A DNA stretch of 64,000 nucleotides from Actinomycetota bacterium (GTDB lineage Bacteria > Actinomycetota > Thermoleophilia > Solirubrobacterales > JACPNS01), in assembly GCA_016213645.1 (NCBI GenBank), contig JACQZY010000028.1:9457-73456 (forward strand). The letters run 5' to 3'. Made by a program: the position numbers and the translations under genes. Below are positions 6,352-64,000 of this stretch, in pieces (position 1 is the first letter of the stretch; each line of letters begins with the position of its first letter). Under the pieces are notes generated by a model. The model saw nothing but the letters and a program-made list of their open reading frames with translations, had not been told where the DNA came from and did not search any database.

Positions 6352-7757
6352 ATGAGAAACCAAAGCTGCGGTTGGCCGAACCCGTCGCGCCGACGCCTCC
6401 GGTCGGCACCTCGGCCGCCGAAGGATTGAGCTTTCGCGGCGGCCGGCCGGCCGATCTGCTGATTCGTGGAGCGCATGTGCTTGATCCGCGCGCCGACGTG
6501 GACGCGGTGCTCGACGTGCTTGTGCGTAGCGGCGAGATCGCCGAGATCGCGGCATCGATCCAACCGCCGGACGGCGCCGAGATCGTGGAAGCGTCCGGAA
6601 AACACCTTTTCCCGGGTTTTGTGGACCCTCATGTGCATCTGCGCACGCCCGGTTTTGAATACAAGGAAGACATCGAGAGCGGCACGCGCGCGGCCGCGGC
6701 CGGTGGATTCTGTTTGATCGTCGCGATGGCCAACACAAACCCGCCGGTTGACAACTCCGGCGTGCTGCAATCGCTGCGAATGCGAGCGGCGGTCGAGGCG
6801 CACGTGCCGGTCGGTTTCTCGGCCAACGTCACGAAGGGAATGGCGGGCGCCGAACTCACCGAGATGGCGGATCTCGCCGAGGCCGGCGCTGTTTGCTTCA
6901 CGGACGACGGCCTGCCGATCGCCGACGCGGGGATCATGCGCCAGGCGCTTCAATACCAGCGCCTCGCCGGTCGCGTGATCGCGCTGCATCAGGAAGATCC
7001 GGCGTTGACCAAAGGCGGTGTGATGCACGAGGGCGCGGTTTCCGCCGCGCTCGGTCTGGCCGGCGTGCCCCCTGTCTCAGAGAGCACGATGATCGCGCGC
7101 GACGCGCTGTTGGCTCATTACGAGGACGCGCGCATTCACGTGCAGCATCTTTCCAGCTCGCAGTCCGTGGAGGCCGTCGCTGCGGCAAAACAGCGTGGCG
7201 TGAAGATCAGCGCGGAAGCCTCGCCGCACCACCTTTCGCTGACCGATGCGGCCGTTGGCGACGGAACCAACGCCAACTTCAAAATGAACCCGCCACTGCG
7301 CACCGAGCCCGACCGCCAGGCTCTGATCGAAGGACTACGTGACGGCACGATCGACTGCATTGCCACCGACCACGCACCGCACGCCGCTCACGAGAAAGAG
7401 GTCCCATTTGAGCAAGCGGCAATGGGCGTGACCGGTCTTGAGACCTCTTTTTCGATCGTTTACAGCGATCTTGTGGTTCCGGGAGTGTTGCCGCTGGCGC
7501 TGGTGATCGAACGCATGACCGCCGGAGCCGCGCCACTGGATCTGCCGACGCCGCTGGTTGCGGTCGGCGAACCGGCGAATCTGGCGCTGGTCGATCTTGA
7601 GGCCAGGTGGACCGTGGGCGAAGAAGGCTATGAAAGCCGCTCTGCCAACTGCTGCTTCGCCGGACGCGAGGTCGGCGGCCGCGTACAGCTGACGGTCGCA
7701 TCCGGCGTGCTTGTTTACCGCGCGCGTAGCTTCGCGATTCAGGAGGTTGGGGCATGA
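6348..7757 (+). CDS. pyrC: dihydroorotase
   Basis: DPHVHLRTPG and ATDHAPH metal-ligand motifs. ATGA overlap with pyrB. The N-terminal 30 or so aa are non-conserved, so the start is uncertain. Confidence 0.9.
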   Translation: MNEKPKLRLAEPVAPTPPVGTSAAEGLSFRGGRPADLLIRGAHVLDPRADVDAVLDVLVRSGEIAEIAASIQPPDGAEIVEASGKHLFPGFVDPHVHLRTPGFEYKEDIESGTRAAAAGGFCLIVAMANTNPPVDNSGVLQSLRMRAAVEAHVPVGFSANVTKGMAGAELTEMADLAEAGAVCFTDDGLPIADAGIMRQALQYQRLAGRVIALHQEDPALTKGGVMHEGAVSAALGLAGVPPVSESTMIARDALLAHYEDARIHVQHLSSSQSVEAVAAAKQRGVKISAEASPHHLSLTDAAVGDGTNANFKMNPPLRTEPDRQALIEGLRDGTIDCIATDHAPHAAHEKEVPFEQAAMGVTGLETSFSIVYSDLVVPGVLPLALVIERMTAGAAPLDLPTPLVAVGEPANLALVDLEARWTVGEEGYESRSANCCFAGREVGGRVQLTVASGVLVYRARSFAIQEVGA

Positions 7758-8887
7758 GCGCCGCGCGTGAGCCCGCATACCTGCTGCTGGAAGACGGTAC
7801 GCGCTTCGACGGCCTGGCCGCCGGTGCGCCCGGGCCTGTAACCGGCGAAGTTGTGTTCAACACGGCGATGACCGGCTATCAGGAGGCACTCACCGACCCC
7901 AGCTACCGCGGTCAGATCATCACCTACACCTACCCGATGGTCGGTAACTACGGCGTGGCCGAGGCGTTTATGGAGTCCGAGCAGCCGCATGCGCGCGCGG
8001 TCGTAATGCGCGAGGTGGCACCTTCCGGCTCGCCCACGGCTCAGGGTGACTGGGAGGCCTGGCTGGCCGAGCAAGGCGTGCCCGGGATCACCGGGGTGGA
8101 CACGCGCGCGCTGGTGCGCCACATTCGCGACAAGGGCGCGATGCGCGGAGGCATTTTCGGCGGCGACGTGCCTCAGCCCGAGGCACGCGAGCGCGTGGAA
8201 GCCGAGCCGTCGATGAGTGGGCAGGATTTGGCCCGTGAAGTAACGCCACAATCGCCGGTGGTATTTGACGAGGGCGACGGCCCGCTTGTAGTGGCGATCG
8301 ACACTGGGATCAAGCGCTCGATTATCGACAACCTGCGAGCGCGCGGCGTCCGGTTGGAGTTACATCCCTGCGGCACGCCCGCCACCGATCTGCTGGCGCG
8401 TGACCCGGACTTTTTCTTTTTGGCAAATGGTCCAGGCGATCCGGCGGCGCTGGATTACGTGGTCGCGAACGTGCGCGAACTAATCGGCAAGAAGCCGGTC
8501 TTCGGCATCTGTCTGGGCCATCAGCTGCTCTGCCGCGCGATCGGCCTTGACACCTACAAGCTTCCGTTCGGGCACCGCGGCGCAAATCATCCCGTGAAGG
8601 ATCTGGCCACCGGCAAAATCGACATCACTGCCCAGAACCACGGCTTCGCCGTGCAGACGCCCGACGGCAGCGGCCGGATCACCGGCGACGAGCCGGTGCG
8701 CTGGCAGACGGATTTCGGCGCGGCCGAGCTTTCGCATGTGAACCTCTACGACTACACGGTCGAGGGTTTGGTGTTGCGCGACGTGCCGGGCGCCACGGTG
8801 CAGTACCACCCAGAGGCCGGTCCCGGACCGCACGACGCGCTCTACCTCTTTGACCGCTTCCTCGATCTCGCCGAAAGGAGCGCCTGA
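7754..8887 (+). CDS. carA: carbamoyl-phosphate synthase small (glutaminase) subunit
   Basis: GICLGHQLL catalytic Cys and YHPE His of a class I amidotransferase. 4-nt overlap with pyrC. Confidence 0.95.
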
Positions 8888-8891
8888 CGCG

Positions 8892-12031
<3,140 letters not shown>

Positions 12032-60866: not shown

Positions 60867-60937
60867 CCTGGATGCATTGGCCGGGAATTACTCAGGACTG
60901 GCCGCAAATGCTAAGCAAATATTGGTAGTGTCGAGGG

Positions 60938-62206
60938 ATGTTTAACGGAACGCCTTTCTCCACTCGCGCCGCCGCTCTGACGACGACCATCGCCGCCGCG
61001 CTCTGCTTGCTCATCCTGCTCATCACCACCGACATCGGCACGTCTCAGGCTGCCGGCTCGCATGCGTCGTCAGGTGCGGTCCCACAGCCTTCCGCCGCCG
61101 TCGGGTACCAGCGCGCCAAATCGATCCTGCTGAAAAAAGTGATCAAACCAAAGTCGCTGGCGGCGGGTGATGACCTGATCGCGTTCCGCATGAAGCGTCC
61201 TCTTGCGGCCAAGACCAAGATCCACGTGCACGAGGACCGCGAAGCAGTGATCACAGTGCGTGAGCGCTCGTGGTTCTTCTGGGTGGACGACGATCCGAAG
61301 GCACAGTTTGAGCACGCCACGCGCTATGTGCTGATCAGCCAGCGCACCGGCAAGGTGAAAACCGTTACGCGCAACTGGTGGCCGGAGATCAAGGGCAAGG
61401 CTCCGTGGTTCGAGTACGCCGCGTACTGGAAGAAGTCGAACTGGGCGTACAGCACATTGACGCCACCGGCGACCACGTCGCGCGCGCCCAATATCCGGAC
61501 CGCCAAGGCCTCGATAACGCGCGACACTGCACTCAGGATCGCGGCGTCCACCACCGAATGCGCTGTCTTGATCGACGGGTCTGGAGACAAGAAGGCCGGC
61601 TTCCCGGACGACGTAGATGGCATGGAAAAGGTGATGGGCACGACCTTCGGCTACACCACGAAGAAGCTGACGCCGCCGAACAACAAGAAGGCCGACTTCG
61701 AAAAGGCGGTCAACGACCTGATCGCCGACGGATGCAAGGACGTACTTTTGTTCATCTCCGGCCATGGTTCGAAGGAGTCGGTGGAGATGGGCGAGGGGGC
61801 TACCTACTCGCCGAAGGAGTTGAAGGACCTGATCGACAAAAACCCAACCGTGGGTTTCAAGGTCGTGGTGCAGTCCTGCAAGTCCGGAAGCTGGATCACG
61901 CCGCTCGGCGAAGGTCCCTTGATCACGATCACTTCGACCGACAGCGACAAACCCAGCTACTCGGCAGACCCCGACGGCAAGGACGATCCAAACCCGGGCG
62001 ACACGGGCAGTGAGTTCACAAGTGGATTGATCGAGGATCTCGCCGCGATCCCGGGCGACCCGGCGCTGCTGCAACGCGTTCAGAACTGCGTGCTCGCCGG
62101 AAAATCAATCCTCGTTTGCAAACTTCAAATAGCGTGGGAGAGCGCGCTGGCCAAGGACGAAGACGCCAAAGCCGGCAACGAAAACCCGCAGAAGAAGGAG
62201 AAGTAG
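60938..62206 (+). CDS. secreted legumain-like (clan CD, family C13-like) cysteine peptidase candidate
   Basis: Signal-peptide-like N-terminus. The C-terminal half has CAVLIDGSG, then VLLFISGHG (His after a beta-strand) and, 38 residues later, FKVVVQSCKSGSW (Cys after a beta-strand). That order and spacing match the legumain His-Cys dyad. The protein is Lys-rich, unlike its neighbours. Confidence 0.6.
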   Translation: MFNGTPFSTRAAALTTTIAAALCLLILLITTDIGTSQAAGSHASSGAVPQPSAAVGYQRAKSILLKKVIKPKSLAAGDDLIAFRMKRPLAAKTKIHVHEDREAVITVRERSWFFWVDDDPKAQFEHATRYVLISQRTGKVKTVTRNWWPEIKGKAPWFEYAAYWKKSNWAYSTLTPPATTSRAPNIRTAKASITRDTALRIAASTTECAVLIDGSGDKKAGFPDDVDGMEKVMGTTFGYTTKKLTPPNNKKADFEKAVNDLIADGCKDVLLFISGHGSKESVEMGEGATYSPKELKDLIDKNPTVGFKVVVQSCKSGSWITPLGEGPLITITSTDSDKPSYSADPDGKDDPNPGDTGSEFTSGLIEDLAAIPGDPALLQRVQNCVLAGKSILVCKLQIAWESALAKDEDAKAGNENPQKKEK

Positions 62207-62306
62207 AAGAGGGCCGATGGCGCTCCCTTCGGTTTGGGCAAGGGAGGATCTTCGATTGTTTGTGCCGCTTGCCAGTCCGGAAATTCGCGATAGATCAGCG
62301 CAGACG

Positions 62307-62453
62307 TCAGCGTAAAGACGCATAAGCGCTTATCGGGATCACGACGAGATACACCAGCACCACAGCACAAACAAGCACAAATTTCAGCGCACGCTCATTG
62401 ATCCTCGTCGAAACGCCGTTGAGGGCGTGAGCGCCCAACACCATCGAATTCAT
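62307..62453 (-). CDS. possible 48-aa single-pass membrane peptide (below the ORF-track length cut-off)
   Basis: My own translation: MNSMVLGAHALNGVSTRINERALKFVLVCAVVLVYLVVIPISAYASLR. AAGGGA lies about 8 nt upstream of the ATG. No homology evidence. Confidence 0.25.
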   Translation of the reverse strand: MNSMVLGAHALNGVSTRINERALKFVLVCAVVLVYLVVIPISAYASLR

Positions 62454-62688
62454 ATTCAGTTGTCCCTTGAATCTTGATCAATTGCAATTCCGCAACACGC
62501 CAACATCCCGGCCCGGCGGGTCGCTTTCACCCGAGATCGACGCGACCGGGACCAACCATTACCCGGACCGGCCGAATGATTAGTACAAATGTTGTGATCG
62601 CGCGACGCTGCGGCCACCGGTAACCGCGAAAGATCCGCTGGCACATCGAAATACGCGGCGATTTCAACGCCGGGTCTGGCCCAAAAAC

Positions 62689-62727
62689 TTGACATCTGAT
62701 GCGAATTCCGATAACATCATCGCATCA
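62689..62727 (+). promoter_or_regulatory. candidate vapBC promoter with an overlapping inverted-repeat operator
   Basis: TTGACA (62689-62694), a 17-nt spacer, then TAACAT (62712-62717). The 8-bp inverted repeat tgatgcga / tcgcatca (62697-62704 and 62720-62727) brackets the -10 element. Confidence 0.45.
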
Positions 62728-62730
62728 CTC

Positions 62731-62964
62731 ATGCCCAGAACAACGCTCGACATAGACAAAACGGTTCTCCTGGAGCTCAAACAAAGACAACAGCGCGAGC
62801 ACAAGTCCTTGGGCAAGCTCGCGTCTGAACTGTTGGCGTCGGCAATGGCGAATGAGCGGGCACAAGCGGATCAACCGGAGTTCGAGTGGAAAACCGCACC
62901 GATGAACGCAATCGTTGACATCGCGGACAAAGAAGCGCTCTTCGCGGCGCTCGACGGCGAGTGA
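62731..62964 (+). CDS. vapB: type II antitoxin (VapB-like)
   Basis: 77 aa from ATG 62731, beginning MPRTTLDIDKTVLLELKQRQQREHKSLGKLASELL. 4-nt overlap with the PIN toxin gene. Confidence 0.75.
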   Translation: MPRTTLDIDKTVLLELKQRQQREHKSLGKLASELLASAMANERAQADQPEFEWKTAPMNAIVDIADKEALFAALDGE

Positions 62965-63395
62965 GCGCCGCCCTCGATGCGAATGTTTTGCTCTACGCGT
63001 CCGACGCGTCGAGTGAATTTCATGAGCGAGCACTGAAAACCCTGCACGAATTAGCCGAGGGGCGGGAACTGCTGTATTTGTTTTGGCCGATGTTGATGGC
63101 CTACCTGCGAATCTCGACCCATCCCTCGATTTTCGCCAACCCGCTGTCGTCAGAAGACGCGATCGCGAATATCTCGCAGTTGACCGAGCGCGCGAATGTG
63201 CGCACGCCGGGCGAGGCCGAAGACTTCCTGCAAATATTCAACGAGTCGACCGCCGACCTGACCATCCGCGGCAATCTCGTTCCGGACGCGCACGTCGTAG
63301 CCCTGATGCGCCAGTACGACGTGAAAACGATCATCAGCCACGATCGAGATTTCAGAAAGTTCGACGGAATCAAAGTCGCGGATCCATTTAAATGA
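62961..63395 (+). CDS. vapC: PIN-domain ribonuclease toxin VapC
   Basis: 144 aa. Acidic PIN residues occur in LDANVLLYA, in the mid-protein E/D positions and in ISHDRDF. Confidence 0.85.
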   Translation: MSAALDANVLLYASDASSEFHERALKTLHELAEGRELLYLFWPMLMAYLRISTHPSIFANPLSSEDAIANISQLTERANVRTPGEAEDFLQIFNESTADLTIRGNLVPDAHVVALMRQYDVKTIISHDRDFRKFDGIKVADPFK

Positions 63396-63593: not shown

Positions 63594-64000
63594 CTAGCTG
63601 CTGACCGCGTAATTCAGGTAGACGGCGCCGCTCGGAAACAAGCGTTCATCAATCAATTGCAAATCGATTTGCCGTCCGGTCGGCAGCGCCGGTTTTCCGC
63701 CACCGACGGCGACCGGCAAAAACATCAGCCCGATCTCGTCGACGAGTCCCGCCGTGAACGCGGCAGCGGCAAGGCCGGGGCCGCCGATCACGAGGTCCTC
63801 GTCTCCGGCCTTGAGCTCACGGATCTGGTCTGGGTCGAACGCCCGTTCCAACGTGGTGCGCGCAGTTGAGACGGCCTCAAGCGTTTTCGAATAGACAAGC
63901 TTGTCGCGACCCCGCCAGATCTCAGCGAACTCACGTATCACCGCGGGCTCATCGTCGACGGGCATCGTTTCCCAGGCGGCCATCGTCTCGTACAGGCGCC
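63594..64000 (-). CDS. dihydrofolate reductase-like (RibD C-terminal domain) family protein, 5'-truncated by the window edge
   Basis: LVIGGPGLAAAAFTAGLVDEIGLMFLPVAVGGGKPAL is typical of RibD_C. The frame stays open upstream of Met63983 (..RLYETMAAW..) to the window end. Confidence 0.7.
   Translation of the reverse strand, partial: RLYETMAAWETMPVDDEPAVIREFAEIWRGRDKLVYSKTLEAVSTARTTLERAFDPDQIRELKAGDEDLVIGGPGLAAAAFTAGLVDEIGLMFLPVAVGGGKPALPTGRQIDLQLIDERLFPSGAVYLNYAVSS

Follow-up and report, generated by a model that had tools for sequence, protein, structure and literature searches.

We consider it highly probable that the gene at positions 60938–62206 on the forward strand of the analyzed stretch (64,000 nucleotides of contig JACQZY010000028.1 of an Actinomycetota bacterium, hereinafter the window) encodes an exported cysteine endopeptidase of clan CD, with C13 as the nearest family, which uses a His276/Cys314 dyad, has a specificity pocket unlike that of legumain, carries a partner N-terminal domain and is encoded by a gene of the chromosomal backbone. 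The gene is complete, begins with ATG, ends with the TAG stop codon and encodes 422 aa. Its ATG is the earliest possible start 3' of an upstream stop codon, and the closest homologues share the N-terminus MFNGTPF. The protein is 100% identical to an entry from a metagenome-assembled genome (MAG) in the NCBI database, "hypothetical protein HY827_10580 [Actinobacteria bacterium]". No paralogue of the peptidase gene is present within the window.

Among 5.8 billion proteins searched, the protein has 26 close relatives (identity 46–100%), nearly all with a precomputed C13 match. Distant relatives came from a profile run exhaustively against 1.84 billion cluster representatives (50% identity): 2,595 sequences passed E 1e-3, 846 of them 1e-10 and 131 of them 1e-30. 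Relatives in such numbers, together with the Pfam C13 match, go far beyond chance.

The C-terminal half of the protein (residues 203–422, positions 61544–62203, + strand, pI 4.6) is a clan CD catalytic domain of the caspase/legumain fold, with C13 as the nearest family, according to the Pfam, Foldseek, family profile and hhalign analyses. The sole Pfam match, Peptidase_C13 (PF01650), scores 30.3 bits (gathering threshold 22.8; E 4e-7) and covers profile positions 74–190 of 258. Among PDB sequences, the family profile matched only legumains (E 4e-6), plant asparaginyl endopeptidases (AEPs) and ligases, and GPI8 (E 0.025); the alignment places the HG motif on His148 of legumain, C-x-S-G-S on Cys189 and Asp355 on Asp231. 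A single-sequence search of the same PDB sequences gave noise only (antibody chains, E >0.3). Comparison of a 157-sequence profile with human legumain in the hhalign program, run in local mode with this deeper profile, gave a probability of 96% and E 6e-9 over legumain residues 23–289, the central part of the human sequence used being confirmed by the PDB alignment.

The AlphaFold2 (AF2) model of the full-length protein has a predicted local distance difference test score (pLDDT) of 83.1 and a predicted template modelling score (pTM) of 0.78. Residues 207–332 of the model follow the order beta-alpha-beta-alpha-beta-alpha-beta-alpha-beta, and Foldseek matched it to caspase-8, legumain and PIGK at a probability of 1.00 and E of about 1e-6. 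The first-pass annotation, made from the DNA letters alone, had proposed a clan CD, C13-like peptidase and had likened an upstream strand, the first of the domain, to that of legumain; both proposals agree with these results. It had also named the findings that would speak against it, namely the lack of a clan CD match, a fold not of the caspase type, or unconserved His and Cys residues, and none of these was observed.

Since caspase-8 was the top Foldseek match, with a score indistinguishable from that of legumain, descent of the catalytic domain from orthocaspases or metacaspases (C14) was weighed as well, in which case the C13 label would be a profile artefact. The Q-x-C motif of the peptidase, which we take to resemble QACxG of caspases, was counted in favor of this origin. 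In a Pfam scan of 73 diverse relatives, 10 sequences reached E 1e-3 for Peptidase_C14, and one of the relatives, P0027, matched C14 only; NCBIfam offered no usable model for the protein or 10 relatives, giving weak caspase_w_EACC1 matches only. However, 42 of the 73 sequences matched Peptidase_C13, with better E-values, and the Peptidase_C14 profile did not match the protein itself even at E up to 10. At the same limit, the family profile found no caspase or metacaspase chain in the PDB, and the alignment with legumain spans the whole domain. In addition, the Arg residues that bind the P1 Asp in C14 enzymes are absent here, and the peptidase is predicted to be exported, not cytoplasmic. A C14 origin is thus regarded as distinctly improbable, and assignment to clan CD with C13 as the nearest family is retained. 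A defence role of the caspase-like kind was likewise dropped, as no PADLOC defence-system model was matched and the protein is also predicted to be exported.

Legumains and AEPs (MEROPS C13, PF01650; human legumain, plant AEPs and butelase) are the best match of the protein in sequence, profile and fold, and share the same alpha/beta sandwich and the order His-Gly...Cys-x-Ser-Gly-Ser, with a spacing of 38 residues between His276 and Cys314 here and 41 residues in legumain. Three segments of the protein show this arrangement: CAVLIDGSG (residues 208–216), VLLFISGHG (residues 269–277, containing His276) and FKVVVQSCKSGSW (residues 306–319, containing Cys314). The catalytic His276 (codon CAT, positions 61763–61765, + strand), which is followed by Gly277, aligns with legumain His148, and the catalytic Cys314 (codon TGC, positions 61877–61879, + strand), within the motif Q-S-C-K-S-G-S-W, with legumain Cys189. 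In the AF2 model, His276-Gly277 directly follow the strand 268–274 and Cys314 directly follows the strand 306–312. In all clan CD enzymes, the catalytic His and Cys each lie just after a beta strand (PMC4357240, PMC4850288). Catalysis would accordingly proceed through a His276/Cys314 dyad, placed where two adjacent strands of the caspase-type alpha/beta sandwich reach their C-terminal ends.

Conservation was assessed in 172 relatives, the best of the 2,595 found in the profile search. His276 was present in 172 of them, Gly277 in 162 and Cys314 in 160, and His276, Gly277, Cys314 and Gly317 are invariant in the alignment of the 26 close relatives. The His-Gly and Cys motifs, first annotated as the catalytic dyad, are thus kept in the homologues, and the remaining sequence traits noted together with them, a high Lys content (9.5% of residues) and a KKEK C-terminus, were found in the places indicated. 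A catalytically dead pseudo-peptidase with a binding or structural role only might be imagined, as the Cys is missing in 12 of the 172 relatives. It is an extremely improbable reading, given that His276, Gly277, Cys314 and Gly317 are all present here and in 93–100% of relatives.

The protein belongs to a divergent prokaryotic branch and is not a legumain orthologue; identity with legumain is about 17%. The Asn specificity of legumain depends on a zwitterionic S1 pocket formed by Arg44 and His45 of helix alpha1 and Ser216 and Asp231 of loop L5 (PMC4357240), and its activity is tuned by Asn42, Glu190, Ser215 and Asp147 (PMC9604545). According to the alignment, Ser215/216 corresponds to Ser340 (Ser in 115 of 165 family members) and Asp231 to Asp355 (Asp in 146 of 153). 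By the alignment alone, in a segment of low confidence, Arg44/His45 correspond to Pro223 and a gap. Asn42 is replaced by Gly221, at a position that varies within clan CD, the "activity brake" Glu190 by Lys315 (Y, K, H or F across the family) and Asp147 by Gly275. The C-terminal prodomain of legumain, which consists of the activation peptide and the legumain stabilization and activity modulation (LSAM) domain, has no counterpart either, as the chain ends at residue 422, shortly after the last catalytic-domain helices; a conserved N-terminal domain is found here instead. Of the features peculiar to legumain proper, neither the zwitterionic S1 pocket, nor the Asn42/Glu190/Asp147 set, nor the LSAM prodomain was thus recovered, and for lack of these counterparts neither Asn specificity nor acid activation is expected.

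The positions that would form the pocket are acidic in character. Asp225 (codon 61610–61612, + strand; Asp in 117 of 165 sequences) lies at the N-terminus of helix alpha1 (residues 222–236), in the region that holds Arg44/His45 in legumain and Asp163 in gingipain R, and would line S1, by a positional argument drawn from the clan CD review (PMC4357240). Together with Gln312, Ser340 and Asp355, it would form an acidic S1 site, as we infer from the alignment. The residue two positions before the catalytic Cys (Cys-2) is Asp in 79 of the 172 relatives, Gln in 53 (including Gln312 of the protein studied), Glu in 17 and Asn in 11. In the Arg/Lys-specific enzymes PmC11, clostripain and MALT1, S1 specificity is set primarily by an Asp at Cys-2 (PMC4850288), and in gingipain R the Asp163 residue on alpha1 binds the P1 Arg (PMC4357240).

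In view of these precedents, of the acidic pocket positions and of the missing Arg44/His45 counterpart, the acidic S1 site may accommodate a P1 residue other than Asn, most likely a basic one (Arg/Lys), at near-neutral pH; we hold this preference to be plausible, at somewhat less than an even chance. Two points weigh against it: the protein itself has Gln, not Asp, at Cys-2, and the beta1-alpha1 alignment is of low confidence. The enzyme would then act at near-neutral extracellular pH, possibly with a bound cation. An acidic loop with the pattern D344-x-D346-x3-D350-P-N352-P-x-D355-x-G357-x-E359-F360 (positions 61967–62017, + strand; pLDDT 62–71) is kept in 132–153 of about 155 sequences, and it may, speculatively, be a metal-binding site. 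Of the family members, 97% have an acidic catalytic domain.

The first-pass annotation had suggested Asn/Asp specificity, which now appears unlikely in the light of the pocket composition. That the protein is a true functional legumain/AEP or an AEP-type ligase, cleaving or ligating after Asn or Asp, would agree with legumains and plant AEPs/ligases being its best sequence and profile matches, and with the conserved counterparts of Ser215/216 (Ser340) and Asp231 (Asp355). This remains unlikely, because Arg44/His45 lack a counterpart, Asn42, Glu190 and Asp147 are replaced by Gly, Lys and Gly, the LSAM prodomain is missing, and the family most often has Asp at Cys-2, as in Arg/Lys-specific enzymes. 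A divergent C13-like peptidase with an altered pocket is therefore preferred.

Among the clan CD peptidases that bacteria secrete, gingipain R (C25) and clostripain/PmC11 (C11) have an acidic S1 site, with Asp on alpha1 or at Cys-2, and cleave after Arg/Lys; their sequence kinship with the present protein is at the clan level only. An N-terminal prodomain about 200 residues long keeps gingipain inhibited until the prodomain is cleaved after Arg, and by analogy this type of prodomain may be the nearest working model for the relationship between the N-terminal domain and the enzyme, although the N-terminal domain has no fold match in the PDB, gingipain prodomains included.

The N-terminal alpha+beta domain (residues 56–180, positions 61103–61477, + strand) is conserved and has no recognized fold. 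Modeled alone by AF2 (pLDDT 89.5, pTM 0.84), it consists of one helix followed by seven or eight strands, and it carries the signature WFFWxDDxPxAxFxHxxRxV...WWP...G...W...YW...W, whose positions are 80–97% conserved. A search of Pfam at E up to 10 and of NCBIfam gave no match, and fold searches found no PDB match (best E 0.5) and no viral match in BFVD (best E 0.22), in agreement with the earlier remark that this part of the protein resembles nothing known. Residues 47–182 show no sequence or fold similarity to known prodomain or inhibitor families (gingipain prodomain, PepSY, cystatin-like). A PepSY- or cystatin-like impression (a helix and strands ending in ...VFIDaxTGkV) was set aside as it had no Foldseek support, and so was a kinship with echicetin B (C-type lectin-like), a marginal sequence match (E 0.047) unsupported by the fold search.

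The two domains occur as a unit in 127 of 175 tabulated relatives, and in distant relatives the identity to the protein is 33% in the N-terminal domain and 31% in the catalytic domain. A search of a large protein index with the N-terminal domain alignment found only two fragments. The full-length pTM of 0.78 exceeds the value of about 0.52 attainable by one well-placed domain of 220 residues, which suggests that the N-terminal and catalytic domains are held in a fixed arrangement in the model. In some relatives, about 300 residues separate the N-terminal domain from the catalytic domain. One side finding concerns P0114, a 457-aa protein of an NCBI MAG, which has a signal anchor and four tandem N-terminal domain cores (WFFxIDD...VRYVFI...WWP) and no peptidase domain; it indicates that the module can function on its own. 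The separation in some relatives and these peptidase-free tandem copies argue against a simple throw-away propeptide. Most likely, the N-terminal domain is a built-in partner, either a folding or regulatory cap or a substrate- or envelope-binding exosite, and not a disposable propeptide. The pro-domain or inhibitor role put forward in the first-pass annotation is conceivable.

In net charge, the N-terminal domain stands at about +14 throughout the 25 close actinobacterial relatives and at about −13 in 96 distant ones. Its basicity is the source of the Lys-rich impression mentioned above. The charge reversal is specific to the clade, and binding to an anionic envelope is a possibility. Docking of a basic N-terminal domain on the acidic catalytic domain by electrostatic attraction was rejected for the family as a whole, as the N-terminal domain is acidic in 93% of distant relatives.

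Two flexible segments flank the N-terminal domain. Residues 39–55 (positions 61052–61102, + strand) form a low-complexity segment rich in Ala, Ser and Pro that varies in the alignment of close relatives, with pLDDT <50 for residues 28–46, and residues 181–202 (positions 61478–61543, + strand) form a disordered basic linker with pLDDT <50 throughout. A basic residue of the linker (Arg200 here), 7–8 residues before Cys208, is kept only within the close clade. It was considered as a universal autoprocessing site and rejected, since its conservation is confined to the close clade and is not found in the deep family.

Taking the N-terminal domain and the pocket together, a bolder reading may be entertained, which we treat as tentative and as less likely than not. 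The N-terminal domain would be a new fold that has co-evolved as a built-in regulator or recognition unit, and the prokaryotic branch would have a specificity or chemistry unknown from the C13 enzymes of eukaryotes; it might, for instance, cleave or ligate at basic residues under neutral conditions.

The protein is probably exported, extracytoplasmic and disulfide-stabilized. A predicted Sec-type signal peptide covers residues 1–38 (positions 60938–61051, + strand), with Arg10, a hydrophobic core at residues 11–30 and a predicted A-x-A-like cleavage site SQA|AG; the call is heuristic and rests on hydropathy, the −3/−1 rule and low pLDDT. An uncleaved signal anchor may be present instead of a cleaved signal peptide. 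Signal-peptide-like N-termini are shared by 23 of the 24 close homologues and by 71 of the 83 distant ones, which conforms to the secreted nature first annotated for the protein. Across the family, Cys208 and Cys266 are both present in 57 sequences, both absent in 74 and mixed in 18, and Cys384 and Cys394 are both present in 29, both absent in 79 and mixed in 3. The members of each pair are thus gained and lost jointly, as would be expected for disulfides. Longer relatives carry accessory domains of the extracellular type, namely dockerin, cohesin, PKD, Big, VWA, LTD and CarboxypepD_reg. The signal-like N-termini, paired cysteines and extracellular accessory domains together point to an extracytoplasmic enzyme, and legumain likewise is secretory.

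As for GPI8/PIGK, the catalytic subunit of glycosylphosphatidylinositol (GPI) transamidase in family C13, it shares with the protein the family-level profile and fold match, and it acts on exported proteins. According to a corresponding reading, the protein would cut a C-terminal signal and join an exported protein to an envelope acceptor, its N-terminal domain binding the acceptor or the substrate. GPI8/PIGK is among the sequence and fold matches and the protein is predicted to be extracytoplasmic. In two relatives, L003 (positions 7330–9069) and L008 (positions 7202–8998), a gene of a predicted membrane protein of 579–598 aa with no Pfam family lies co-directionally 3' of the peptidase gene; the two proteins share 67% identity, and in L008 the gene overlaps the end of the peptidase gene. 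This membrane protein could be a lineage-specific partner or a substrate. However, the GPI8 match is far weaker than that of legumain, no recognizable sorting-signal substrates were found, and neither the window nor relative L001 encodes the membrane protein. No remnant of the 579-aa gene of the relatives was detected in the window by tblastn, and no conserved operon partner was found across relatives, the distant homologues lying in unrelated contexts. Unlike GPI8/PIGK, the protein has no partner subunits or conserved neighbours here, is soluble or signal-anchored, and is prokaryotic. A transamidase of the GPI8/PIGK kind is thus a very unlikely reading, and the peptidase is a stand-alone unit.

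The peptidase gene is divergent from an amidase gene (PF01425, E 2e-81), in agreement with the earlier description. The intergenic region between the amidase gene (− strand) and the peptidase gene (+ strand), positions 60867–60937, is 71 bp long and has GAGGG immediately 5' of the ATG; a search of this region for a sigma-70-like consensus found none. Around the peptidase gene, no RNA family matches and no convincing promoters or terminators were found. An antisense open reading frame (ORF) of 334 codons at positions 61070–62074 on the − strand, rich in Arg, Gly and Val, overlaps the gene. It is a typical spurious ORF of high-GC DNA and was dismissed because the + frame has a third-position GC content (GC3) of 0.806, a Pfam match and homologues.

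Downstream of the gene, a spacer at positions 62207–62688 (482 bp) has a lower GC content (0.56), appears non-coding and lies outside the peptidase gene; synteny with relatives breaks here. No Rfam family matches the spacer, no terminator-like site follows the stop codon of the peptidase gene, and the spacer looks like a local rearrangement hot spot. It is followed by a vapBC-type module (positions 62731–63395, + strand), a functionally unrelated neighbour that comprises a putative antitoxin (62731–62964) and vapC (62961–63395) with a 4-nt GTGA overlap. The VapC protein matches the PIN domain with E 9e-7 and TIGR00028 with E 2.5e-32 (112 bits against a cutoff of 73.6), and a PIN-domain VapC preceded by a small overlapping ORF is the arrangement of a VapBC module. 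The putative antitoxin ORF encodes 77 aa (MPRTTLDIDK...), with a mechanical ORF start at 62689, and had no match to Pfam and NCBIfam models. A sigma-70-like sequence, TTGACA-17-TAACAT, was seen at 62689–62717, just 5' of the module. At the edge of the window, positions 63594–63983 (− strand), an ORF of the RibD_C type (dihydrofolate reductase-like, E 3e-8) is present, and the GC content there is back to 0.63.

The downstream vapBC module and the divergent amidase gene had been reported correctly at the outset; the claim of a lower-GC region was right for the spacer and vapBC, whose GC content is 0.55–0.56 (62207–63395), and only weakly true for the peptidase gene. The gene itself has a GC content of 0.607, which puts it at the 6th percentile of the window (mean 0.637), and its GC3 of 0.806 exceeds that of the amidase gene (0.737) and of the Glu_synthase-like gene (0.775), the neighbours ranging from 0.74 to 0.78. 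As GC3 lies above that of the neighbours, the dip in GC content comes from the Lys/Thr-rich composition of the protein and not from foreign codon usage.

The block GATase-PPIase-PhoU-Glu_synthase-Amidase-(divergent) C13 is syntenic in three relatives, whose peptidases are 61–81% identical, and DNA collinearity with relative L001 extends over 6.9 kb at 80.6% and stops at 62205, at the gene end. The downstream side varies among relatives and encodes a 148-aa protein or the membrane protein described above, and in L003 vapC recurs 3 kb further downstream with 72% DNA identity. The first-pass annotation had inferred horizontal acquisition, and in the corresponding reading the peptidase gene would have arrived with vapBC as part of a low-GC islet gained by horizontal transfer. 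Its GC content in the 6th percentile of the window, the low-GC spacer and vapBC, and the position of one distant homologue next to a phage integrase speak for this. The highest GC3 in the neighborhood, the left-flank synteny in three relatives, the collinearity up to the stop codon and the presence of vapC also in L003 speak against it, and we consider the islet reading to have very little probability. By its GC3, left-flank synteny and DNA collinearity up to the stop codon, the peptidase gene belongs to the backbone of this actinobacterial lineage and has been inherited vertically.

The integrase-adjoining homologue is in L004 (positions 7630–8826, relative of P0022), where the peptidase gene adjoins a phage-type integrase and an apparent integrated element (HTH_17, AAA_25), with a 1.2-kb stretch lacking a called gene upstream of the peptidase.

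Among GTDB species representatives, in a scan limited to two conserved peptide patterns, relatives were found in MAGs only, the bacterial hosts being Actinomycetota, Chloroflexota, Nannocystaceae and Bryobacter and the archaeal hosts Thermoplasmata, Thermococci, Theionarchaea, Methanosarcinales, Halobacteria and DPANN lineages. The branch is spread widely among uncultured Chloroflexota, Actinomycetota and Myxococcota and among many archaea. Source names among the relatives are all "hypothetical protein" apart from one misnamed solute-binding fusion.

To our knowledge, every studied enzyme of family C13 is eukaryotic: legumain, the plant peptide ligases and GPI transamidase. A search of full-text literature found no relevant paper on bacterial, prokaryotic or archaeal legumain/C13 enzymes, and neither biochemical nor structural publications on the prokaryotic group came to light, in keeping with the earlier description of bacterial C13-like enzymes as uncharacterized. 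The accompanying view that they are rare does not hold, since the subfamily alone counts 2,595 cluster representatives and the clan CD review records C13 in both Bacteria and Archaea (PMC4357240). The catalytic half would already receive a correct label in databases, and no accepted idea is overturned.

The protein is therefore a divergent member of a known peptidase clan and family, with a distinct architecture, probably a distinct specificity, and an ordinary chromosomal location. The gene represents a compact minimal member of a large prokaryotic C13 sister group; its specificity pocket is altered and its partner domain unclassified. Its characterization would show what prokaryotic C13-like enzymes do and give a function to a conserved domain present in thousands of environmental proteins, and it could extend a tool set in which plant AEPs prevail by a protease or ligase scaffold for neutral pH.

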